Positions 3,348-31,418 of a stretch of 64,000 bases of DNA are shown piece by piece. How positions within the stretch are numbered: the stretch's first letter is position 1; every line of letters begins with the position of its first letter. The translations under genes and the position numbers were made by a program. The stretch spans positions 1-64,000 of the forward strand of contig JAJZED010000004.1 of the NCBI GenBank assembly GCA_021805775.1, written 5' to 3'. The stretch is from a bacterium. GTDB taxonomy: Bacteria; Vulcanimicrobiota; Vulcanimicrobiia; Vulcanimicrobiales; Vulcanimicrobiaceae. The notes under the pieces were generated by a model. That model did not search any database and was not told the origin of the DNA. It worked only from the letters and a program-made list of their open reading frames with translations.

Positions 3348-6098
3348 ATGTCGACCGTCGAGGATCTCCGACGTTTGCAATCCATCCTCGATACCGCCCC
3401 CGTCGGAGTGGGAATTTCAACAAACGGTGTCGTGCGCTTCGCCAACGTGCGGCTGCATGAAATTATCAACGTACATGTCGGCGCGTCGAGTCGCGATCTC
3501 TACGTCGATCCCGTAGAGCGCGACGCAATCGCGGCACGCATCGCCGCCGGGGGGGTCGTCAGGGATGCAGAAATGCGGATGTACGCGCCCGGGGGAGTTG
3601 AGGTTCGCGACATCTCCGCGAGTTTTTTGCCTGGCGATTATGACGGAGTGCCCGGGCTTTTGGTCTGGATGGTCGATATCACCGAAAGCAAACAGGCGGC
3701 AGCGGCGCTTGAGGAACAGCGATATTTTCTCGCCGCGATCCTCGACAATCTACCCGATGCAACGTTCGCGATCGATAACCAAGGGTGCATCACAGCGTGG
3801 AACCGAGCCGCAGAAGAGATGACCGGGGTCAAAGCCGAGGATATGTTCGGCAAAGGGAACTACGAGTACGCGATTCCGTTCTACGGAGAGCGGCGGCCGA
3901 TTCTCATCGACTTGTTGTTTTCTCCGGAAAAAGAAATATTAAAATATCATCACGTTCGACGCGTCGGCGATGCATTGCTCGGCGACGGATATATCCGGTG
4001 GCCGCATCGAGAAATATGGTTCGAAGGCAGCGCCGCACTCTTACGCGATTCGCGCGGGCAAGTCATCGGCGCGATCGAAACCATACGCGACCAAACGGAG
4101 CGCCGGAGAGCAGAAATAAAAACCGAGTCGTCGAATCTTCGACTCTCGGGCGTCATCGATGCTTTACCGGATGCGGCCTTCGTCATCGATGACGAAGGCA
4201 AGGTGGTGGCGTGGAACAAAGCCTTGGTTGCGATGACGGGCGTTGAAGCAGAAAAAATGATCGGGAAGGGCAACCACGAGTATGCGATTCCGTTCTACGG
4301 AGAGCGTCGGCCGATCGTCATCGACTTAATCGATAAACCCGATGAAGAACTCGCGCAAAATTATGCGTGGCTGCGTCGCGAAAGCGGCGGCGTTCTTTCG
4401 GGAGAGGTTGAAATCGATTTTCCCTTCATCGATCACAAACTCTACATACAAGCTCGCGCGCGGGCTCTCTACGAGGCAGAGGGCGAAAAAGCGGGTGCCA
4501 TCGAGATCATCCACGACCTAACCGAGCGGCAACGCATCGAGAGCGAACTCACCGTCGCGAAACGCAGCGCCGAGGAAGCCAATCGGGCTAAAAGTGCTTT
4601 CTTGGCCAATATGAGCCATGAGTTGCGCACCCCATTGAACGCAATTATCGGCTATTCGGAGATGCTCGCCGAGGAATTGGAAGAGATGGGCGAGGCTCGT
4701 ATGGTTGACGACAGCAAAAAAATACGATCGGCCGGCAAGCACTTGCTCGGGTTGATCAATGAAGTTCTCGATATTTCGAAAATCGAAGCCGGCAAGATGA
4801 CGCTTAGCATCGAACAGATTGACATTCCGGCGATGATTGGCGATGTTGTGTCAACCGTCACGCCGCTCACTGCGAAAAATGCAAATACCCTCGCGGTAGA
4901 ATGCTCGCCGGATATTCCGCCGATCCAGGCCGACCTGATGAAAGTGCGACAATCGTTGCTCAATTTACTCAGCAACGCTTGCAAATTCGCAAAAGGAGGT
5001 GCCATACAACTGCGCGTCTCGAGCGATGGAGATTGGGTTGACTTCATCGTCGCCGATAACGGCATCGGCATGACGCCGGAGCAGTGTGGCAAGCTGTTTC
5101 AAGCATTCTCCCAAGCCGATTCCTCAATCACGCGTGAATATGGTGGAACCGGCCTCGGCTTGGCCATCACCCGTAAGTTCTGCCGACTGATGGGCGGCGA
5201 TGTATTCGTAGAAAGCTCGTTGGGTAAGGGCTCCACATTCACAATGCGTCTGCCCGTTATTGCGAAAGATATGACCGTGGCGCCCTCGGCAAGTGCCGGG
5301 GAAGAGCGCAAAGAGAGCTCCGCTTCTCGTCCGTTGGCCTTAGTGGTTGACGACGACCCGGCGGCGCGTGAAATGCTGCAGCGAAGTTTAGAGAGGTGCG
5401 GCTACCGCGTCGCCACGGCAAACGATGGGGAAGAGGCGCTTCGTGTCGCAGTGGATCTGAAACCCTCGATTATTACGCTGGACGCAATTATGCCGCGTAC
5501 GGACGGGTGGGCGACGCTTAGCCGTCTGAAAGCCGACAGCGCACTCGCGAGTATCCCCGTCATCATGGTCTCGGTACTGGGGGATTCCCAGATGGCCTAC
5601 GCCTTGGGCGCGGCCCATTATCTATCCAAGCCCGTCGATCAAAGCGAACTTTGCGCCGTGCTCGAGCAGTACCGAGGCAATCGGAACGTGTTACTTGTGG
5701 AGGACGACGAAACGACCCGCGCGATGATGCGTCGCATGCTGGAGAAGAGCGGATGGTCGGTAATCGAAGCGCAAAATGGGAAGATCGGGCTGGAGCGGAT
5801 GGAGGAAGCGTTGCCCGATATCGTTCTGCTCGACTTGACGATGCCGGTGATGGACGGTTTTGAATTCGTCGCCGAAATTCGGCAGCACGAGAACTGGCGC
5901 GCGGTTCCGATCATCGTGCTGACCGCAAAGGACGTTACTCCCGCTGAATCGGCGCGCCTTGCAGGGCGCACCACGCGAATTTTGCAGAAAGGTTCGGTTA
6001 ATCTCGACGCACTTGCAGAGCAAATTCGCAGTCTGCTCCCGTCGGACGGGCCTGACGCGATTCATGGAGCAGTACGCACTCTAGAAAATCGGCGTTAG
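3348..6098 (+). CDS. Hybrid sensor histidine kinase (2x PAS, HisKA, HATPase_c, 2x receiver)
   Basis: 916 aa. H-box [19 protein letters not shown]. ATPase N/G boxes ([24 protein letters not shown]). Two C-terminal receiver domains (LALVVDDD ... TLDAIMP; NVLLVEDDE ... [11 protein letters not shown]). AAGGAG RBS sits 9 nt upstream of the ATG. The gene starts 3 nt after the cyclase stop. Confidence 0.9.
3711..4503 (+). repeat. Intragenic tandem duplication of a PAS domain (about 125 aa per copy) inside the hybrid kinase
   Basis: Two copies share the block W-N[37 protein letters not shown]. Their DNA is near-identical (for example tacgcgattccgttctacggagagcggcggccgat versus tatgcgattccgttctacggagagcgtcggccgat). 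Coordinates are approximate. Confidence 0.7.
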
Positions 6099-6291: not shown

Positions 6292-7473
<1,182 letters not shown>

Positions 7474-7489
7474 CCTTTTCCTCGGAACG

Positions 7490-9850
<2,361 letters not shown>

Positions 9851-20841: not shown

Positions 20842-23433
20842 TTGGAAAACGGAGTGGAACCGGTCACCGATAGGCTCGCCGACGCTGAAACGGCAGCGCT
20901 TGGGCTCGGTTCGGTAGAGGCTGCTCGACGGCTCGCGCTCGACGGGGCGAACGAACTGCCGTCGGCAAAACGGCGTTCGTGGCTCTCGGTCGCCGCCGAG
21001 GCCGCGCGCGAACCGATGTTCCTGTTGTTGGTCGCTTGCGGCGTCGTGTACATTCTCCTCGGCGATCCCGCCGAGGCCGCGATGCTGCTCGCCTTCGTTG
21101 CCGTCGTCGTCGGAATCAGCATTTCGCAGGCACAGAAGGCGGAGAGAACGCTCGACACGCTTCGCGAGCTCTCCGCTTTCCAAGCGATCGTCATTCGTGA
21201 CGGCCGCCAACAACGCATCTCCGCGCGCGATATCGTCTGCGGCGACGCCATCGTCATCCTCGAAGGCGATCGCGTTCCCGCCGATGCGGTGCTGCTCTCC
21301 GGGAACAACGTGAAGGTCGATGAAGCCCTACTCACCGGCGAATCGGTCGCGGTTCGTAAAGCGGTGCGCTCGCCGATACCCGATCGGATGGCGAAACCCG
21401 GCGGAGAAGATCTTCCGTTCGTTTATTCGGGCACAATGGTCGTCGGCGGGAAGGGCGTCGCGCGCGTGCTTGCGATCGGTTCGAAGACCGAGATCGGCGC
21501 GATCGGCAGTGCGCTCGCCGATGTAAAGATCGAACCGACCCGCATCCAGCGGGAGACGAACTCGGTGGTGCGGCGGCTAGCCGTTGCGGCGTTGATTGTC
21601 AGCGCATTGGTCGCGCTCGCCTACGGCTTGCACCGCGGAGATTGGTTGCGCGCCGTGTTGGTCGGCATCGCGCTTGCGATGGCGATTCTTCCCGAAGAAC
21701 TTCCCGTCGTGTTGTCGGTATTTCTCGGGCTCGGTGCTTGGAGAATCGCGCAGAAAAATGTACTGACGCGCCGCCTTCCGGCGATTGAAATGTTGGGTTC
21801 GGCGACGCTCCTTTGCGTCGATAAAACCGGCACGCTCACTGAAAATCGCATGTCCGTCGTAACGCTCGCCGCCGCCGACGGTGCGCTTTGCCGTTGCGAT
21901 AGTGCGACACCGATCCCCGCGCAGTACCACGATATTCTCGAATACGGCGCATTGGCGAGCCATCGCGATCCCTTCGACCCGACCGAACGCGCGATCGCCG
22001 ATGCGTTAGCGCATCGCTTAGCGGGAAGCGACCGCAGGCATCGCGACTGGGTGCTCGCCGGTGAGTACCCGCTATCGCGCTCGATGCTCGCAATGTCGCG
22101 GGTTTGGGTTCGTCCCGATGCTCGGAGCTGGGTCGTTGCTGCAAAAGGCGCACCGGAAGCAATCGCCGATCTCTGCCATCTCGACCGCGTTCGAACCGAG
22201 GCCCTCGAAGCCCGCGTATCGGAGATCGCCTCGACGGGGCTGCGCGTTTTGGGTGTGGCGCGAGCGCTCTACAACGGCGATACCCTGCCCGAGGGGCAGC
22301 ACGATTTCGAGTTTGAATTTGTCGGATTGATCGGCCTCGCCGATCCGATTCGGCCGCGCGTGCCGGCGGCGGTCGCCGAGGCCTACACCGCGGGCATCCG
22401 CGTCGTCATCATCACTGGCGACTACCCGGCGACGGCGGTCAGCGTTGCGAAGAGTATCGGGTTGAAGAGCCCGGAGCGTTATCTGACCGGCGTGCAGATC
22501 GAAGCGATGGACGATGCGGCGCTCTCGGCGGCGGTCGCCGAGACGAATATTTTCTGTCGCGTTATTCCCGAGCAGAAACTACGATTGGTCGAGGCCTTCA
22601 AACGAAACGGTGAGATCGTCGCGATGACGGGAGACGGTGTTAACGATGCGCCTGCTTTGAAAGCCGCTCACGTCGGCATTGCCATGGGTGCGCGAGGAAC
22701 CGATGTCGCGCGCGAAGCGGCGGCGCTGGTGCTTCTCGATGACGATTTCGGTTCGATTATCGATGCCGTGAAACTCGGGCGACGGATCTTTGACAATCTC
22801 CACAAGGCAATCGCGTTCGTTATTTCCGCACACGTTCCAATCGTGGGAATGAGCTTGATTCCGGTGCTTTTCGGAATGCCGTTGCTGCTGTTACCCGTGC
22901 ATATTCTGTTCTTACAGCTCATCATCGATCCGGCGTGCTCGATCGCGTTCGAGGCAGAGCCGGCTGAAGAAGATATTATGCGGCGGCCGCCGAGACCCGT
23001 CGGCGCGTCCTTGTTCGATCGCGCGCTTCTCATTCATGCCGGAATGCAAGGGGGCATCGCCTTGGCCGCAACGCTTGCGGTCTTTGTTGCGGCTCTTGCG
23101 TTCGGGCGCGACGAACGCGTCGCGCGCGCGTTGGCATTTACGACGATGGTGTTGGTGAGCGTCGCGCTCCTGTTCATCAATCGCTCGACCGGTGGGAGCG
23201 TCGCGCGCACGATGCGCGTTCGCAACCCGGCGGTAACGATCATCGCCGTGGGGGCGCTGCTCTTCCTTGTCGCGGCGCTGACCGTCGTTCCGATCCGTCA
23301 CCTGTTTTCGTTTGAGGCTCTGCGACTGCAGGATCTTCTCTTACCGGCCGCCGCGTGGGTCGCCTCGATTCTCGGATTGGTGCTCCTTCGTTTTGCGGCG
23401 ACGCACGCGCGCGAGCGCTCGTGGGCGAACTAG
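20842..23433 (+). CDS. Cation-transporting P-type ATPase (type IIA, Ca2+/Mg2+-like)
   Basis: 863 aa. TGES, phosphorylation motif CVDKTGTLTEN, hinge TGDGVNDAPALKAAHVGIAMG, 10-TM topology. No CPC or heavy-metal motif. Confidence 0.9.
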   Translation: MENGVEPVTDRLADAETAALGLGSVEAARRLALDGANELPSAKRRSWLSVAAEAAREPMFLLLVACGVVYILLGDPAEAAMLLAFVAVVVGISISQAQKAERTLDTLRELSAFQAIVIRDGRQQRISARDIVCGDAIVILEGDRVPADAVLLSGNNVKVDEALLTGESVAVRKAVRSPIPDRMAKPGGEDLPFVYSGTMVVGGKGVARVLAIGSKTEIGAIGSALADVKIEPTRIQRETNSVVRRLAVAALIVSALVALAYGLHRGDWLRAVLVGIALAMAILPEELPVVLSVFLGLGAWRIAQKNVLTRRLPAIEMLGSATLLCVDKTGTLTENRMSVVTLAAADGALCRCDSATPIPAQYHDILEYGALASHRDPFDPTERAIADALAHRLAGSDRRHRDWVLAGEYPLSRSMLAMSRVWVRPDARSWVVAAKGAPEAIADLCHLDRVRTEALEARVSEIASTGLRVLGVARALYNGDTLPEGQHDFEFEFVGLIGLADPIRPRVPAAVAEAYTAGIRVVIITGDYPATAVSVAKSIGLKSPERYLTGVQIEAMDDAALSAAVAETNIFCRVIPEQKLRLVEAFKRNGEIVAMTGDGVNDAPALKAAHVGIAMGARGTDVAREAAALVLLDDDFGSIIDAVKLGRRIFDNLHKAIAFVISAHVPIVGMSLIPVLFGMPLLLLPVHILFLQLIIDPACSIAFEAEPAEEDIMRRPPRPVGASLFDRALLIHAGMQGGIALAATLAVFVAALAFGRDERVARALAFTTMVLVSVALLFINRSTGGSVARTMRVRNPAVTIIAVGALLFLVAALTVVPIRHLFSFEALRLQDLLLPAAAWVASILGLVLLRFAATHARERSWAN

Positions 23434-23939
23434 TGGGCGAGCGGCGGTCGCCCGTGCGACCGCGGCTGGACGCCGACGTTATCGCGGCCGCCGGTGGTTT
23501 TCTGTTCTTTTCCGGCGTGCGGCGGCCGATGGGAGAAATCCAAACGCGCGGCATCGATGCAGTACCCCGCTTCGGAGACGATCGCGGGATCGATCGTCAG
23601 CGTATTCAGCCGCAATTCGATATAAATTTCGCTCAGGCGCGCGAGCAGGTGTTCGACGGTGTGTCGGAGGCGTTCGTTGCCGACGAGGAGGCCGCGTGCG
23701 ACCAACTCGTCGACCATCGTCGTGGCCTCGAACGGCGCGAGCGGCATCAGTCTTCGCGCCTCGCCTTCGCCGATGCTGACGATCATTGAAGGGCCGGCAG
23801 TCGCGGTCGGGTCGATAGCGATGCGAACTTTTGTTCGGTGCCGTTTCCCGAGGCTTTCGTGCGTTCCATCGGCGGGATGGACGCGTAGGCCGAAACGTTC
23901 CAGGTCGATAAGGGCTTCGGGTCCAGTATGCACGTTCAT
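23430..23939 (-). CDS. Hypothetical protein resembling only the C-terminal ATP-grasp_5 part of ADP-forming acyl-CoA synthetases (probable gene remnant)
   Basis: 169 aa. ELRLNTLTIDPAIVSEAGYCIDAARLDFS resembles the lEINPL ... alDAk ... D tail of succinyl-/acetyl-CoA synthetase ATP-grasp domains. An in-frame stop lies immediately upstream, so no N-terminal CoA-binding or ligase domains are present. Confidence 0.35.
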   Translation of the reverse strand: MNVHTGPEALIDLERFGLRVHPADGTHESLGKRHRTKVRIAIDPTATAGPSMIVSIGEGEARRLMPLAPFEATTMVDELVARGLLVGNERLRHTVEHLLARLSEIYIELRLNTLTIDPAIVSEAGYCIDAARLDFSHRPPHAGKEQKTTGGRDNVGVQPRSHGRPPLAH

Positions 23940-24006: not shown

Positions 24007-27000
24007 TTACACCGTCGCCGCTTCAACGAAGCGGCAGAGCAGATTGAGCATCGCCATCTGCTCGACCGTCGAGCAGCGCAGATCGAGCAAGCCCGGGTTG
24101 GTCACCAATACCGTCATGCATTGAGCGCGTGAAATCGCGACGTTAAAACGGTTCTTTTCGAATAAGAAATCGATCCCGCGGGGTGCCGATTCGAGGCTCG
24201 ACGTCGCCATCGTATAGAAAACGATCGGCGCTTCCTGTCCTTGAAACTTATCGACGGTTCCGACCCGGATATCGGGAAAACCGGCGTCGGCGAGCATGCC
24301 CTCGAGAAGGAGACGCTGCCCGTTATACGGCGTGACGACAAGAATATCGGCATCGACGATCGCGCGTGCCTTTTGCTTGCCGACGCGCACTCGCCCCGTA
24401 CGCAGGCGTTTGATTTCGGCGAGAACGCGTTCTGCCTCTTCGACGGATTCGCGCGAGTTGCCGTCGTGGATGACGGGCAAATATCGGAGCCCCGCCCCGC
24501 GCAGCCCGGAACTTTCGACCAACGAACCCTCGGTATCGGGCGCGGAGTGCAAGCGGCCTGCATACACGTGGCGAGAGATAAAGGAACAGATGTCGGGGTG
24601 CATGCGAAATGACGTATCGAGAAATATGCCGCGTTCGGGCGGCACGGTTGCCGCGTCATCGAGCAAATAGCTGAGAACGGAGCCTCCCATTCCGGGCGGA
24701 TGAACGCCTTGCGATACTTGGGCGAGTTGGAGTGGGTCGCCCAACAAGACGAGGTTTTTGGCGGCGGGTGCGACGGCGATGACGTCGGCGAGCGCGATCT
24801 GTCCGGCCTCATCGATAAACAGATAGTCGAGGTCGACGGCAAAATCTTCGCGAGAAAAGAGCCACGAAGTTCCGGCGGCGAGTTCGCAGGATCCCGCGAC
24901 GAATGCAGCATTATTCGTGGTGCCGTCGATATATGGAGAGCGCATCTTCGACGCGAAATTTTCGCCGCTGCCGACCTTGTAGAGTCCGCGGAAGTCGACG
25001 CGCTGCGTTTTCGCAGCCGCTTCGATCTTATGAAGCAGGTTTTGAATAGCTTTATGGGTCGTCGACATAACGCCGATACGTTTGCCTTCGCCGAGGAGCG
25101 TGGCGATCGTCTTCGATGCAACCGTCGATTTTCCCGAACCCGGCGGGCCCTGGACGAAAAGATAGCTTTCGTCGAGCTTGCGGACGACCGGTACGATGTG
25201 CTCGACGTCGACGCTCTCCGGCTGGATCGTGCCGTTCTTGCCGATCCCGCGGATGCGCGGGCGGCGCAGAAGCAGATCGATGACCGAGCGCGGCCGAGCA
25301 TGTTGCAAGTCCGCGGGAAGTGCTTCGGCGATGCGTACCAGCGAAGCCCGTTGCGCCCTCGTGTCGATCGGCGGTGCGGGAATGAGCGCGGTTAACGTGC
25401 GGGCGCGGGCGATATCCCCGCTGCGACGAATGCGAATGCGTCGCTTCTCTTCGTCGATGTCGACGAACGTACCGGCAGCTTTCATGGTCAGAGGGTCGAG
25501 CATCCGATCCGTAACGCTGTATTCTTGTTCCGGGAAGCGATAGGTGTAGGTGCGATTTCTTTCGCGCCCGTGGAGAGCGGGCTCGTGCGTGTCGACCAAC
25601 TGCAGGCCGCCGAGGCATTCGGCGCGCTCGATATGATCGGTCGCCGACATCTCGGAGAGGTCGAAGAGATTCCACCAGGTCGGCTTATCTTCGCGGCGAT
25701 GGTACGAGAGCAATTGCGCGACGATCCAGCAGACGCGCGCGTATTCTTCGCTCGCCTCGAGCTCTTCGCTGCTCCCGATCGTCGGTGCCTCGGCGAGTAG
25801 GCGTTGTTGTAGGTCGCTCAATGCGGCGAGTTTGGCGGCGCGCTCTTCTTCGAGCGAGGGCGGTTCTCGCTTCGGGCGCCAGGGAATCTCGCAGCCGAAG
25901 CGCTTTTGGGCGTCGGCGCGAAGGGCAATAAGCCACTCGCGCAACTCGAACGTGGAGCGACAATCTTCCTCGTTATAACGCTCGATCGTTTCGAGAAGGG
26001 CGCGGTTGCTTTGGTCGAGGAGCCACTGCTCGAACATGACGACGGAGTCGTCTCCGCTGCGCAGCTCGGCCGCACGTTTGAACCCATAGTAAAGTTCGAG
26101 TTTTTTAATTGAGTAACTGGGCTGCCCGACGCAGATCGCCTGGCGGACGACCGTGTAGAGATCGACCAGAACCTCCGCGCGAAGAAGGTCGTCGATCTCG
26201 GCCTCGCGCGTCGCGTGCCGAACGCTGAGTCTGCGCAGCGCCCCTTTTTCGTACGAAGCGTAATGATAGATGTGAAGATCGGGATACTTCTGACGGCGCG
26301 TCATGAAGAAATCGATGCACTCTTCGAACGCGCGGCGTTCCGATTTCGCGTCGGTCCCCCAGAACGGCACGAAGCGTCGTTCCTCGGCGAGATAGATACC
26401 GAAGAGATACTCCAATCCCAAACCCGGAGCGAAGAGCGGGTCGCCCTCCATATCGAAAAAAATATCGCCGAGATTCGGCTGGGGAAGAAAGCCGAAGCCA
26501 CGGAGTTCCTCGGGGGGAAGAAGTTCGTAGCGCGGCACGCCGCCGTCACGCTGCTCCACCTGCAGGCGCGCCTGGCGGCGGAGGCCGGCGAAGGTGTCGC
26601 GCGCGATACCCGATGGGAGCGATCGATCGGGAGCCTTGGCGAGTTGCCGCATCGTAAGGATCGGCGGATCGGCTGCCGCGAATAAGCGGATCTGGTCGGA
26701 ACGCATGTTCGAAACGAGACTGAGGTGGTCGCGCGCCTCGCGAAGATCTTCGCAACGCGTCTTCCAGGTACAGAGCGCGCAGTGCTTTACGGGGGATGGA
26801 ACGGCGTCGAGGCGCATCTCCAATGCCCCGGAACGAAGCTCGGCGATTTCGTTGAGAAACGACGATTTCAAGCGTCGATAATATGCACTGTAGTCATCGA
26901 GGCGAAAGGTGCGGCGTTCGTTCGAGCCGAGGAGTAGGTGCATGAATTCCGGAGCGATGCCGAATACGCGCTCCACTTGCTCGCTGTAAAAGCAGAGTTG

Positions 27001-27447
27001 AATGATAAAATAGGGCTTTTCCGAGAGCGCGAGTTTCGCATCTTCGACTTCATAGCGAGCGTCCGCGCCCGGCGCCTCGGGCACGACGCGGCGGAGAAAA
27101 TCGGCGCGACCAAACCACGTTCCATCGAAAAAAGCGGCTTGGTAGATCGTCGGGGCGCCGGCACGCATCGCTGCGATCGTCTGCGCCTCAGCATGTTCGA
27201 AGGCTGCAATCGATGGGCGAGCGATCGCGGGGATCGCCTCCACGCGCTCTTCTCGCTCGAGCGAGGCAAGGTAGCGATGCTCGTGCTCCTGTCCCTTGCG
27301 GGCGAGCAACTCGCTCTGAAGATCGAGCGAAGCGTCGATGCGGTGCTCGCCTGCGACGGAAAGATCGAGCGCGGTGAGGCTCCGACATTCAAGAAATCGG
27401 TTCAGGTCGGAGGGCGAAAAAATCAGGCGCCCGTCGAGAATTTGCAC
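24007..27447 (-). CDS. Large nuclease-helicase fusion: TM0106/RecB(Cas4)-like PD-(D/E)xK nuclease with Cys cluster, RNase-H-like 3'-5' exonuclease-like region, and SF1B (DNA2/Upf1-type) helicase
   Basis: 1146 aa. N-terminus LDGRLIFSPSDLNRFLECRSLTALD plus Cys cluster KHCALCTWKTRCED (RecB-family/Cas4-like). Middle region IFFDMEGDP ... HIYHYASYEKGALRRL (DEDD/RNase-H-like). C-terminal helicase motifs: Walker A GPPGSGKST, motif II LFIDEAGQ, LVLLGDPLQL, FRMHPDICSF, TVDKFQGQE, VAISRAQ. Confidence 0.85.
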   Translation of the reverse strand: MQILDGRLIFSPSDLNRFLECRSLTALDLSVAGEHRIDASLDLQSELLARKGQEHEHRYLASLEREERVEAIPAIARPSIAAFEHAEAQTIAAMRAGAPTIYQAAFFDGTWFGRADFLRRVVPEAPGADARYEVEDAKLALSEKPYFIIQLCFYSEQVERVFGIAPEFMHLLLGSNERRTFRLDDYSAYYRRLKSSFLNEIAELRSGALEMRLDAVPSPVKHCALCTWKTRCEDLREARDHLSLVSNMRSDQIRLFAAADPPILTMRQLAKAPDRSLPSGIARDTFAGLRRQARLQVEQRDGGVPRYELLPPEELRGFGFLPQPNLGDIFFDMEGDPLFAPGLGLEYLFGIYLAEERRFVPFWGTDAKSERRAFEECIDFFMTRRQKYPDLHIYHYASYEKGALRRLSVRHATREAEIDDLLRAEVLVDLYTVVRQAICVGQPSYSIKKLELYYGFKRAAELRSGDDSVVMFEQWLLDQSNRALLETIERYNEEDCRSTFELREWLIALRADAQKRFGCEIPWRPKREPPSLEEERAAKLAALSDLQQRLLAEAPTIGSSEELEASEEYARVCWIVAQLLSYHRREDKPTWWNLFDLSEMSATDHIERAECLGGLQLVDTHEPALHGRERNRTYTYRFPEQEYSVTDRMLDPLTMKAAGTFVDIDEEKRRIRIRRSGDIARARTLTALIPAPPIDTRAQRASLVRIAEALPADLQHARPRSVIDLLLRRPRIRGIGKNGTIQPESVDVEHIVPVVRKLDESYLFVQGPPGSGKSTVASKTIATLLGEGKRIGVMSTTHKAIQNLLHKIEAAAKTQRVDFRGLYKVGSGENFASKMRSPYIDGTTNNAAFVAGSCELAAGTSWLFSREDFAVDLDYLFIDEAGQIALADVIAVAPAAKNLVLLGDPLQLAQVSQGVHPPGMGGSVLSYLLDDAATVPPERGIFLDTSFRMHPDICSFISRHVYAGRLHSAPDTEGSLVESSGLRGAGLRYLPVIHDGNSRESVEEAERVLAEIKRLRTGRVRVGKQKARAIVDADILVVTPYNGQRLLLEGMLADAGFPDIRVGTVDKFQGQEAPIVFYTMATSSLESAPRGIDFLFEKNRFNVAISRAQCMTVLVTNPGLLDLRCSTVEQMAMLNLLCRFVEAATV

Positions 27448-27494
27448 CAGCCGCCCTCCCCCGTCGCTATCGACGATCCCTGCAAGGATGAACG

Positions 27495-28712
27495 ATGCCG
27501 GAAGTGGGAACAGGCTCGGAGATGTCGCTTCGAACTCCCTTGCTGCCGCTGTACGCAGGGCGCGCCCTGCGCAGCGTCTCGCAAGGGTATCTCGCTATCG
27601 TCGTGCCGCTCTACTTGCTCTCGCTGGGTTACAGCGCTACCGCAGTCGGGCTGCTCATCGCGATCGGCTCGGGCTCGGGAGCGCTGCTCACGCTCGCCGT
27701 CGGCGCGCTCGCAGATCGGATCGGCCGCAAACCGATTCTCGCGGCGTTCGGAATTCTGACGGCACTCGCCGGCGTGGTATTTGCGGTTCAGGGAAATTTT
27801 TTCGTCCTCGCGATCGCCGGTGCGCTTGGAACGATCGGCCAAGGCGGCGGCGTCGGCAGCGGGGGCGCATTCGGGCCGTATTTTGTCGCCGAGCAGGCGC
27901 TTACTGCGGAGCTCTCAGGAGACGAACGGCGCACGGCGGTTTTCGCTCGGCTCTCGTTAGTCGGTACGGTTGGGAGCGTGCTGGGGGCCGGTCTCGCCGT
28001 CTTTCCCGCCCGCCCGCTCTTCTGGTTGACGGCGATCATCGGCGTTGCACTGGCGCTCGTCGTCATGCCGATCAAAGAACAGCGTTCGCGCGCGGTTCGC
28101 GCTCGTTCGAAAGCATCGCTCGCGCCGAATACCTGGAGATTGATTCGGCGCTTCATGCTGACGAATGCGACGAACGGCCTGGCGATCGGCTTTCTCGGCC
28201 CGATCTTGGTGCTCTGGTTCCACGAACGCTTTCGCGTCAACGCCGACCAAATTGCGGTGCTCTATACGACGATCAACGTGCTCTCGATCCTTTCGTACCT
28301 CGGGGTAACGCGCATCGTCGCGGCGATCGGCGGCGCCGTACGCACGGTCGTCGCCTTGCGGGTCTTTTCGTGCGTATTGCTCGCCGCGATGCCGTTCGCG
28401 CCGAGTTTCGTCTTCGCCGGTGCGATCTACGCGTTGCGCATGTTGGTCAACATCGTGACCTTCCCGGTGCGCCAATCCTATGCGATGGGGATTATCCCCG
28501 CCTCGGAGCGCTCGCGAGCCTCCGCGCTTTCGAATCTACCGGCGCGCGTCGGCTCGATGGGCGGGCCGCTCGTCGCCGGTGCGCTCATCGAGCACGCATG
28601 GATCGGGCTGCCGCTGGAGTTTGCCTCGGCGCTGCAATTGCTCAACGCGGGGCTCTATTGGCTGTTTTTCCGCAACTTGCCGCCGCCTGAAGAAGTTGAA
28701 GGCGAGGTATGA
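27495..28712 (+). CDS. MFS transporter
   Basis: 405 aa, 12 predicted TM helices. MFS loop motif GALADRIGRKP between TM2 and TM3. Confidence 0.85.
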   Translation: MPEVGTGSEMSLRTPLLPLYAGRALRSVSQGYLAIVVPLYLLSLGYSATAVGLLIAIGSGSGALLTLAVGALADRIGRKPILAAFGILTALAGVVFAVQGNFFVLAIAGALGTIGQGGGVGSGGAFGPYFVAEQALTAELSGDERRTAVFARLSLVGTVGSVLGAGLAVFPARPLFWLTAIIGVALALVVMPIKEQRSRAVRARSKASLAPNTWRLIRRFMLTNATNGLAIGFLGPILVLWFHERFRVNADQIAVLYTTINVLSILSYLGVTRIVAAIGGAVRTVVALRVFSCVLLAAMPFAPSFVFAGAIYALRMLVNIVTFPVRQSYAMGIIPASERSRASALSNLPARVGSMGGPLVAGALIEHAWIGLPLEFASALQLLNAGLYWLFFRNLPPPEEVEGEV

Positions 28713-30673: not shown

Positions 30674-31357
30674 TCAAGGCATCGACGAGGGAGGGAAAAG
30701 CGATAGATCTCGCGCGGCCTCGGAGAGCGGCGGTGAGGCGAGCAGCTCCGGCCCGTCGTTATGTACATCGTTGACGTCGCGCGAAACCTCGCGGAACGAG
30801 AAGCGCATCGCACCATCGTCGCGCGGCGCGAGCAGCGCCTCTCGATCTTCGGGCGAGAGGCGCGCGTCGAGCCAGTGCAGCGCGTCCTCGGCGGCGATAA
30901 CGGCGGGCTCGCGATGATGGATCGAGCGCAGTTCGAGGCGCGAGGTACGGGTGAGGATAGAAAAACAGGGCGACGCATCGCGAAAATCCCATAATGCGGC
31001 AAAAAAGATCGGGCGTTGGTCGGCGGCGGAAATATAAAACGCTCGCTTTCCGCTCGGCGTCGGCTCCCATTCAAACCAGCCGTTCGCCGGCACGAGTGCC
31101 GGGCGAGCGAGATACGAACGTCGATAGAGCGGGCGTTCCGCCGCGCTCTCCGCACGCGCGTTAAATGTGTGCGGACGGCCGAATCCCCAAAGAGCGGTGG
31201 TTGCATGAAGATCGCTACGGACGATCGGCGTGCGTTGCGTTGGAGCGATATTGTATCGTGCCGGAACGGCGCTATCGAAATCCGGTGCGAGCAGTAAAAA
31301 CGGAAAAGCGGCGGCGATATCGGCGCGCCGAGCGAAAAACGAGAATCTACCGCACAT
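30674..31357 (-). CDS. SOS-response-associated peptidase (SRAP/YedK, abasic-site processing protein)
   Basis: Starts MCGRF, the invariant Cys2 nucleophile of the SRAP/DUF159 family. Further conserved blocks: YNIAPTQ, FNARAES, PANGWFEW. The track ORF extends 20 codons upstream. Truncating to MCGRF is the family-consistent start. Confidence 0.85.
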   Translation of the reverse strand: MCGRFSFFARRADIAAAFPFLLLAPDFDSAVPARYNIAPTQRTPIVRSDLHATTALWGFGRPHTFNARAESAAERPLYRRSYLARPALVPANGWFEWEPTPSGKRAFYISAADQRPIFFAALWDFRDASPCFSILTRTSRLELRSIHHREPAVIAAEDALHWLDARLSPEDREALLAPRDDGAMRFSFREVSRDVNDVHNDGPELLASPPLSEAARDLSLFPPSSMP

Positions 31358-31418
31358 CGAGGGAGCGGCTCCATCCCCACGCAAGGATCGATGCGGCGCT
31401 CGGGCGTACGGTCGCACG

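Follow-up and report, generated by a model that had tools for sequence, protein, structure and literature searches.

We examined a gene (24007..27447, minus strand) in a 64,000-nucleotide stretch of DNA, hereafter the window, from a bacterium of the Vulcanimicrobiaceae (assembly GCA_021805775.1, contig JAJZED010000004.1, positions 1 to 64,000). From a GTG start it encodes a protein of 1146 amino acids (aa), followed by a stop codon, in which a TM0106-type nuclease module is joined to a helicase of superfamily 1B (SF1B). The gene is a member of TIGR03491/COG2251, a named family whose function is uncharacterized, and it is vertically inherited in the Eremiobacterota lineage. We propose, giving the idea about an even chance, that this stand-alone 'DNA2-like' nuclease-helicase serves chromosomal DNA-end processing in this Eremiobacterota genome. 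For the window, the outcome is mainly a correction: an earlier note on this DNA had seen a candidate undescribed defence or repair gene inserted into a pre-existing locus, and we find no novel insertion but a typical member of its family, passed on vertically.

The open reading frame (ORF) described in the earlier note, which left the strand unstated, is real; the frame is open only on the minus strand, and the plus-strand translation is riddled with stops. The start position (MQ..DGR) is common to homologs in an alignment of 30 sequences (48-75% identity). Every motif that had been quoted is found in the protein, namely C223-x2-C226-x5-C232 together with C21, IFFDMEGD (D332, E334) and YHYASYE (394-400) in the N-terminal half, and GPPGSGKST (767-775), DEAGQ (879-883), LLGDPLQL (901-908), DKFQGQE (1066-1072) and ISRAQ (1105-1109) in the helicase.

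Domain anatomy and catalytic residues

A single match to the NCBIfam model TIGR03491, 'TM0106 family RecB-like putative nuclease', spans aa 13-506 (243.2 bits, cutoff 97.45, E = 5.6e-72) and covers profile positions 4-462 of 462. Pfam RNase_H_2 (PF13482) matches aa 329-506 above its cutoff (E = 1.9e-27), AAA_11, AAA_30 and AAA_19 match aa 757-914 (E about 1e-10), and AAA_12 matches aa 937-1117 (E = 3.5e-27). The three functions read earlier from the sequence (nuclease, exonuclease-like region and SF1B helicase) are thus borne out by Pfam, by TIGR03491 and by the comparison of the N-terminal fold described below. The domains had been named correctly; because the one TIGR03491 match runs through the first two of them, however, these are not independent fusions and instead form one known composite module. 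Among the profiles suggested for checking, TIGR03491, AAA_11 and AAA_12 match, whereas neither Cas_Cas4 nor PDDEXK_1 is among the 16 Pfam matches at E <= 0.1; the kinship of the N-terminal domain to Cas4-type nucleases is drawn from TIGR03491, the motifs and the fold.

Reading from the N terminus, with all coordinates on the minus strand, the protein begins with a Cas4-type PD-(D/E)xK nuclease domain bearing four cysteines in the iron-staple pattern (aa 1-245; 26713..27447), whose key residues are C21, H55/E56, D116, D136-x-K138, Q150..Y154, C223, C226 and C232. A helical linker, delimited from the secondary structure of an AlphaFold2 (AF2) model and lying within the TIGR03491 profile (aa 246-325; 26473..26712), leads to the RNase_H_2 domain, a DEDDy-type 3'-5' exonuclease domain (aa 329-506; 25930..26463) with key residues D332, E334, Y396/E400, D429 and Y491-x3-D495. 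Between this domain and the motor stands a region without Pfam match (aa 507-745; 25213..25929), which the AF2 model resolves into a long helical stalk and a small beta-barrel (helices 482-606, strands 632-689), as in Upf1/DNA2-like helicases. Helicase domain 1A follows (aa 746-925; 24673..25212), with Walker A GPPGSGKS at 767-774, DEAGQ at 879-883 and GDPLQL at 903-908, and the chain ends in helicase domain 2A, the AAA_12 region (aa 926-1146; 24010..24672), with motifs IV-VI (TPYNGQ, VDKFQGQE, NVAISRA).

In the 30-homolog alignment all the nuclease residues named above are invariant, as is E133, and the same holds for the exonuclease residues D332, E334, Y396, E400, D429, Y491 and D495 and for helicase motifs I-VI. 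The nuclease set corresponds to the RecB motifs (D, D/E-x-K, QxxxY) together with one N-terminal and three C-terminal cysteines, the pattern seen in Cas4, AddB and Dna2; the exonuclease set maps to the ExoI D-x-E, ExoII-like and ExoIII Y-x3-D motifs. The concern that the catalytic PD-(D/E)xK residues might be missing on alignment is thereby answered, since D116, D136-x-K138, Q150..Y154 and the four cysteines never vary. Further, of 75 sequences drawn from many phyla, at least 65 retain the catalytic residues and the four cysteines, the exceptions being largely four mis-called antisense ORFs (the targets at loci L027, L053, L056 and L067, which also form a false deep branch in our neighbour-joining tree and were disregarded). 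Judged from sequence, the three active sites are all intact, and their conservation extends across phyla; the cysteine pattern predicts that the N-terminal nuclease may hold a 4Fe-4S cluster.

Most homologs also carry a Cys-rich, zinc-ribbon-like insert, C-H-x6-7-C-x2-C, just after the exonuclease domain (alignment columns about 598-620). Neither the window protein (after aa ~520; window 25880-25930) nor its nearest relatives, P0002-P0013, have it.

The full-length AF2 model has a mean predicted local distance difference test (pLDDT) score of 86.9 and a predicted template modelling (pTM) score of 0.81, and a model of aa 1-516 alone reaches a pLDDT of 93.2. When the whole chain is compared with the PDB by Foldseek, mouse Dna2 (5EAN) ranks first (E = 5e-26, about 1190 aligned columns), followed by IGHMBP2 and Upf1. 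In the N-terminal model both nuclease folds are closest to DNA enzymes: Cas4, Dna2, AdnAB, MGME1, the proofreading domains of PolB enzymes, and MrfB. A sequence search of the PDB with phmmer returned helicases only (Upf1, IGHMBP2, DNA2, Sen1), the nuclease folds being seen through the N-terminal model. Similarly, matches to PADLOC models are confined to the helicase part (the MkoA C terminus at 5e-40, MkoC, DpdJ and Hhe), and the N-terminal module matches no PADLOC model. The order of folds is therefore a Cas4-type four-Cys PD-(D/E)xK nuclease, a DEDDy exonuclease of the family-B-polymerase type, a stalk with a beta-barrel, and an SF1B motor of the Upf1/DNA2 type.

Cas4 and Dna2 nucleases cut 5'-ended single-stranded DNA (ssDNA), DEDDy proofreading domains degrade from 3' ends, SF1B motors travel 5' to 3', and in Dna2, as in Bad, a nuclease-helicase of Geobacillus stearothermophilus, the tracked strand meets the nuclease before the motor. 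On the model of these two enzymes, the window protein would load on a 5' single-stranded tail or at a junction of single- and double-stranded DNA. Like Bad, Dna2 and other members of the superfamily it would then translocate 5' to 3' at the expense of ATP, unwinding as it moves; the Fe-S nuclease, if placed ahead of the motor as in these analogues, would cut the tracked 5' strand, and the DEDDy domain would trim the displaced 3'-ended strand. Because a 5'-strand nuclease and a 3'-strand exonuclease would share one motor, one polypeptide could process both strands, making it a single-chain DNA-end processor of two polarities by which both strands of an end are processed or destroyed, a task for which RecBCD and AddAB employ several subunits. 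Such an enzyme could act in repair or recombination and, in the manner of RecBCD, in the degradation of linear foreign DNA; if the protein is indeed such a processor, it would represent a fourth solution beside RecBCD, AddAB and AdnAB.

The motor itself invites another reading, surveillance or decay of RNA, in which an Upf1-like motor would run along the RNA and the attached nucleases would break it down, a scheme already proposed for Mokosh and CoCoNuT. Its best relatives by sequence are indeed the RNA helicases Upf1, IGHMBP2 and Sen1, along with Mokosh MkoA/MkoC; its mycobacterial homologs neighbour the RNA helicase gene deaD; and RNA is the predicted target of McrBC-type systems that are paired with Upf1-like helicases (PMC11090510). 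The best matches of both nuclease folds, however, are DNA enzymes, which makes an RNA target less likely; in addition, the top structural match of the whole chain is Dna2, and the characterized bacterial analogue, Bad, acts on DNA. We consider action on RNA improbable.

Inheritance of the gene at the window locus

Orthologs with 97, 73 and 71% identity to the window protein (loci L001-L003) lie in an identical gene order. On one side this syntenic block comprises genes for an aspartyl protease, an alpha/beta-hydrolase, a SRAP protein, a pyrroline-5-carboxylate reductase-like protein, a zinc alcohol dehydrogenase and a major facilitator superfamily (MFS) transporter, and on the other an ORF of 166-169 aa and genes for a P-type ATPase, an AI-2E transporter, a thiamine pyrophosphate enzyme and a Band_7 protein; the window carries these flanking genes too. 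The divergence of the nuclease-helicase (71-73% identity) falls inside the range of its flanking genes (57-95%). In a neighbour-joining tree (without support values) the window protein lies inside the Eremiobacterota clade. Relatives at ~50% identity, on megabase contigs, have housekeeping surroundings, and they share with each other and with the window a zinc alcohol dehydrogenase, a short-chain fatty acid transporter, an MFS transporter, TamB, SpoIIE and rpoB/rpoC. Together, the common gene order, the matching divergence, the position in the tree and the residual synteny lead us to conclude that inheritance in the Eremiobacterota lineage is vertical, and the gene here would appear not to be a recently acquired defence cassette.

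In one of the ~50% relatives, L004, a gene for a DnaQ-like RNase_T exonuclease (3661-4368) directly precedes the homolog; in another, L088, that place is taken by a helicase gene of the SNF2 family (7066-9849), itself adjacent to rpoB.

The earlier note had pictured an insertion between the MFS gene and a disrupted acyl-CoA-synthetase-like gene, of which a truncated fragment was thought to remain downstream. The ORF in question (169 aa; 23430..23939, minus strand) has a sub-threshold match to ATP-grasp_5 (E = 6.6e-4, 19.5 bits, cutoff 27.6) that covers only the C-terminal third of the profile, as a fragment might. Yet the ORF is full-length in all the relatives (L001 13509-14018; L003 13484-13984; L002 14705-15205), with a ratio of nonsynonymous to synonymous substitution rates (dN/dS) of 0.07-0.18, so it is a conserved gene and not insertion debris: it is intact and under purifying selection, and its reading as a relic of an insertion is ruled out by synteny and dN/dS. 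Nor do the borders of the nuclease-helicase gene resemble those of a newcomer, since the same arrangement persists in relatives down to 71% identity, the GC content of the gene (0.59-0.62) lies within the range of the whole window (0.54-0.68), and neither border shows an integrase, a transposase or a repeat. The relative L002 does have two extra genes and insertion sequence (IS) elements nearby; even so, we judge a recent insertion at this locus very improbable.

In L002 (2316-3512, 13556-14493, 19087-20238) the syntenic block contains an IS110 transposase gene and an IS605 OrfB/TnpB gene, and the two extra genes, one of them ferritin/rubrerythrin-like, part the 166-aa ORF from the nuclease-helicase ortholog; the linkage between ORF and ortholog is thus not obligatory. 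The block displays local plasticity with retention of the nuclease-helicase gene.

The MFS transporter gene, syntenic in relatives, is divergent from the nuclease-helicase gene as had been described (27495..28712, plus strand), across a gap of 47 nt. Within this gap, on the minus strand, a Shine-Dalgarno-like motif read from the sequence, GGGAGG (27455..27460), lies 8-13 nt upstream of the GTG. A scan for sigma-70 promoters yielded none, and terminator-like sites occur at chance level. A PADLOC scan of the ten nearest window genes gave no match except a weak one of the aspartyl protease to a candidate family, so the idea of a defence island finds no footing at this locus. The gene for the SRAP protein (a YedK/HMCES-type SOS-response-associated peptidase; 30677-31417, minus strand), four genes from the nuclease-helicase, keeps its position in L001-L003; it is the sole neighbour related to DNA damage, and its proximity is probably coincidental.

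Family distribution and genomic context

The family is large. A word-indexed protein search returned 7183 proteins, and we count more than 7000 full-length homologs; the best 120 of the 7183 are all about 1130-1210 aa long with an identical Pfam set, and those among them that are named bear the title 'TM0106 family RecB-like putative nuclease' or 'predicted RecB family nuclease'. One public protein, P0001, is 97% identical, the nearest named relatives come from Eremiobacterota (Baltobacteraceae, Vulcanimicrobiaceae), and alignments to NCBI-named TM0106 homologs and to like-named plasmid coding sequences cover 100% of the query. The N-terminal 516 aa alone retrieve 1603 clusters (at 50% identity) when E is limited to <= 1e-30, a number that rises to 4249 at E <= 1e-10, and the top matches are mostly 1100-1200 aa long. 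Sampled at one genome per species, full-length relatives occur in Actinomycetota (including Mycobacterium), Chloroflexota, Acidobacteriota, Alpha-, Beta- and Gammaproteobacteria, Bacteroidota, Verrucomicrobiota, Thermotogota, Myxococcota, Nitrospirota and Bacillota, and homology across the family is full-length and collinear at 36-97% identity.

Because the family has an NCBI name (TIGR03491) and more than 7000 homologs, and its architecture was catalogued as COG2251 in 2012-2014, 'undescribed' was the wrong word for it. COG2251 was grouped with Cas4/DUF83 (Steczkiewicz et al., 2012) and later described as PF13482 plus a DUF83-like PD-(D/E)xK domain, often with tandem AAA domains (Majorek et al., 2014). 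Literature searches on TM0106 returned unrelated papers only, those on TIGR03491 none, and no paper was found on an anti-phage protein combining Cas4-like, helicase and RNase H-like parts.

We compared neighbourhoods at 80 genome loci, the best of a longer candidate list, by crude ORF calling and all-against-all BLAST. No operon partner is common across phyla, so the protein works either alone or with lineage-specific partners. In mycobacteria the order is DeaD, the lipoprotein LprE, the nuclease-helicase, and then a convergent MFS gene. From this order, the published gene names and the H37Rv map, we take Rv1251c to be the Mycobacterium tuberculosis member. Published work reports that lprE and Rv1251c are co-transcribed, in agreement with the gene order, and that MSMEG_5044 of M. 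smegmatis, given as the Rv1251c ortholog, is up 2.18 log2 under an aureolic-acid DNA binder; in the literature searched, Rv1251c otherwise figures in lists only and MSMEG_5044 in that one transcriptomics table. The conserved order in mycobacteria and the induction by a DNA-binding drug both speak for the chromosomal end-processing reading. The mycobacterial homologs fall into two separate clades in the neighbour-joining tree, one LprE-linked (L048 and L061, of the Rv1251c type, with L046) and one nearer Conexibacter and Thermoleophilia (L051, L052), which points to two lineages or to horizontal replacement.

In Proteobacteria the copies are borne on plasmids or integrative and conjugative elements (ICEs), where they adjoin McrBC-like, Shango, WYL, Abi and Hhe-like genes or share apparent operons with them. 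In Paracoccus the gene is followed in an apparent operon by genes for an McrB-like AAA_5 protein, which carries an N-terminal DUF4357, and for McrC; in Novosphingobium it overlaps a following McrB-like gene by 4 nt; in Maritimibacter and Gallionellaceae no more than four genes separate it from McrB-like and McrC genes; and on a Leisingera plasmid (L087 6447-15819) an operon of the gene, an AAA ATPase and McrC, with HEPN and WYL genes, stands beside a type IV secretion system. This arrangement recurs in Alpha- and Betaproteobacteria (L026 10001-17097; L083 6603-12904; L033 4277-13312; L022; and the Leisingera plasmid), in most cases with McrC and often with a divergent WYL-WCX regulator (WYL-WCX regulators lie within five genes in seven loci), and the pairing with an McrB-like protein (and McrC) looks like an undescribed variant of McrBC-type systems. 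In Erythrobacter sp. AP23 (L020 3994-13405), SngA, SngB and SngC of Shango precede the gene on one strand with overlapping ends, and the block adjoins TrwC relaxase and TrwB coupling protein genes; in a Thermotogae metagenome-assembled genome (L029 10001-19636), SngA and SngC adjoin it. The nuclease-helicases of these two cluster in one mixed-phylum clade of the neighbour-joining tree.

Full-length copies at 36-40% identity are found on 60 plasmids. The contexts opened include one with SNF2, VapBC, integrase and endonuclease genes, one with Fic and a multiubiquitin-E2-E1-DUF6527 set, and one with Abi, a 3'-5' exonuclease and a DUF4011 (Hhe-like) protein; others hold, singly, a WYL protein, a DUF2357 (McrC-like) protein, or a helicase-related operon beside repABC. 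On Phenylobacterium plasmid pA (L086 4609-11342), the genes directly upstream of the homolog, on the same strand, are a multiubiquitin-E2-ThiF(E1)-DUF6527 group of the Bil-like ubiquitin type and a ClpP-like SDH protease gene. Isolated phages yielded no full-length homolog in 50,697 records. Among the 2.9 million contigs of IMG/VR there are about six full-length copies (L095-L101, predicted viral or proviral), most near contig ends; they are probably host flanks, or else may be cargo at prophage ends.

These contexts bring up a reading in which the protein serves innate immunity as a dedicated effector: a single gene would supply a nuclease-helicase against phages or plasmids, able to recognize and shred foreign DNA, with the Eremiobacterota and Mycobacterium copies as fixed chromosomal versions of a mobile family. 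We regard this as possible and hold it only tentatively. The 60 plasmids are consistent with it, although plasmid contexts form a biased sample; so are the McrB-like/McrC loci with their frequent divergent WYL regulators, the Shango adjacency within one clade, and the Abi, Hhe-like, Bil-like, VapBC, HEPN and Fic neighbours on plasmids, even if WYL, McrBC-like and Shango neighbours occur at so few non-proteobacterial loci (2/60, see below). The helicase C terminus matches Mokosh MkoA (5e-40), but the N-terminal module matches no PADLOC model; the family's absence from isolated phages agrees with an immune effector. The locus of the window and its clade argue the other way, being syntenic, with metabolic and transport surroundings and a divergence like that of the flanks, and the mycobacterial orthologs are syntenic as well. 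A wider claim, that TM0106-SF1B proteins constitute a widespread unrecognized class of immune effector, acting alone or as the nuclease arm of McrBC-like or Shango systems under WYL control, seems to us possible but less likely than not. If it were true, the 5' Fe-S nuclease and the 3'-5' DEDDy exonuclease would destroy both strands of unwound foreign DNA, and the syntenic copies of Eremiobacterota and Mycobacterium (Rv1251c) would represent chromosomally fixed forms of that defence.

Several observations weigh against our preferred reading, a chromosomal DNA-end processor. Polarity and substrate, and the way in which the two nucleases would share the work, are drawn from analogues, no functional study was found for any TM0106/COG2251 family member, the best sequence matches of the motor are RNA helicases (Upf1, IGHMBP2) and MkoA, and no repair-gene partner is conserved across the 80 loci. 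Further, WYL, McrBC-like or Shango genes lie within five genes at 10 of 20 proteobacterial loci versus 2 of 60 others, in a sample that is small and non-random and has no random-gene background control, and all seven plasmid contexts opened (themselves a biased sample) are rich in defence or mobile-element genes. The proteobacterial partner loci and the plasmid contexts fit a defence role better than housekeeping repair. The defence candidacy raised by the earlier note therefore survives at the level of the family, by virtue of its plasmid- and ICE-borne, defence-adjacent proteobacterial copies, and gains no support from the window locus, where the ten nearest neighbours are non-defence genes.

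Synteny in Eremiobacterota and Mycobacterium favours chromosomal maintenance, and the proteobacterial contexts favour restriction of foreign DNA; to judge from RecBCD, the two roles are compatible and need not exclude each other. Should defence prove right, a conserved hypothetical gene of mycobacteria would be explained, and the adjoining McrBC-like and Shango loci would be supplied with a nuclease partner. The family is present in most bacterial phyla with three catalytic sites that, by their residues, appear intact; its size, these active sites, its presumed presence in M. tuberculosis and its repeated association with McrBC-like, Shango and WYL genes make it a worthwhile experimental target.

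Comparison with known systems

The nuclease-then-SF1B-helicase build of eukaryotic DNA2 had been recognized in the window protein earlier, and structure and module order uphold the likeness, with mouse Dna2 (5EAN) as the best whole-chain structural match. The resemblance does not extend to orthology: phmmer similarity is confined to the helicase (aa 758-975, E = 1.7e-12), and DNA2 itself lacks the DEDDy exonuclease domain that is inserted here, so the window protein is not a DNA2 ortholog. DNA2 also works with RPA and RecQ-family partners. With respect to the IGHMBP2 family (TIGR00376), the protein scores 80.8 bits against a cutoff of 348.9 and thus falls outside it.

The N-terminal domain shares with Cas4 (4IC1, 8D3L, 7MI4) the fold and the four-Cys, RecB-motif and QxxxY pattern; unlike Cas4, it has no CRISPR-cas context and no Pfam Cas_Cas4 match at E <= 0.1, and it is fused to an exonuclease and a motor. 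With Mokosh (MkoA/MkoC) and other Upf1-like defence helicases the protein has in common an Upf1-like SF1 motor accompanied by a nuclease, but the PADLOC matches involve only aa 845-1135 and the C-terminal parts of the profiles (MkoA at 5e-40 over helicase domain 2A), there is neither a phospholipase D (PLD) nuclease nor a coiled-coil insertion, the nucleases are of DNA type, and the protein is not a full-length member. Some homologs are paired with McrBC-like genes, as is CoCoNuT CnuH. As for Nhi, to which a likeness had been drawn, no model of that name is among the PADLOC matches at E <= 0.1, its presence in the library not having been checked. RecBCD, AddAB and AdnAB, and likewise WRN and MrfA-MrfB, which couple a helicase to a DEDD exonuclease, are multi-subunit systems with SF1A (and/or RecD) or SF2 motors and provide a functional analogy only; we know of no Chi-type regulation in the TM0106-SF1B family.

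The nearest characterized bacterial analogue is Bad of G. stearothermophilus, although it appears to be of a different class. Bad combines an Fe-S RecB-family nuclease, a central domain and an SF1B helicase in a single chain; it is an ssDNA-dependent ATPase, a 5'-3' translocase and helicase and an ssDNA endonuclease, and its authors, judging by the genes around it, suspect that it acts in a restriction-like way; they also mention a 'second class' in Mycobacteria (Wilkinson et al., 2020; PMC7430649). The central domain of Bad has no recognizable homology, whereas the centre of the window protein is a clear PF13482 exonuclease; the comparison is with the published description rather than by sequence alignment, and no Geobacillus sequence is among the homolog matches. 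Closest of all is the TIGR03491/COG2251 family itself: the window clade lacks the Cys-rich insert found in most homologs, and otherwise the window protein has the same domains and the same conserved residues, with nothing essential different.

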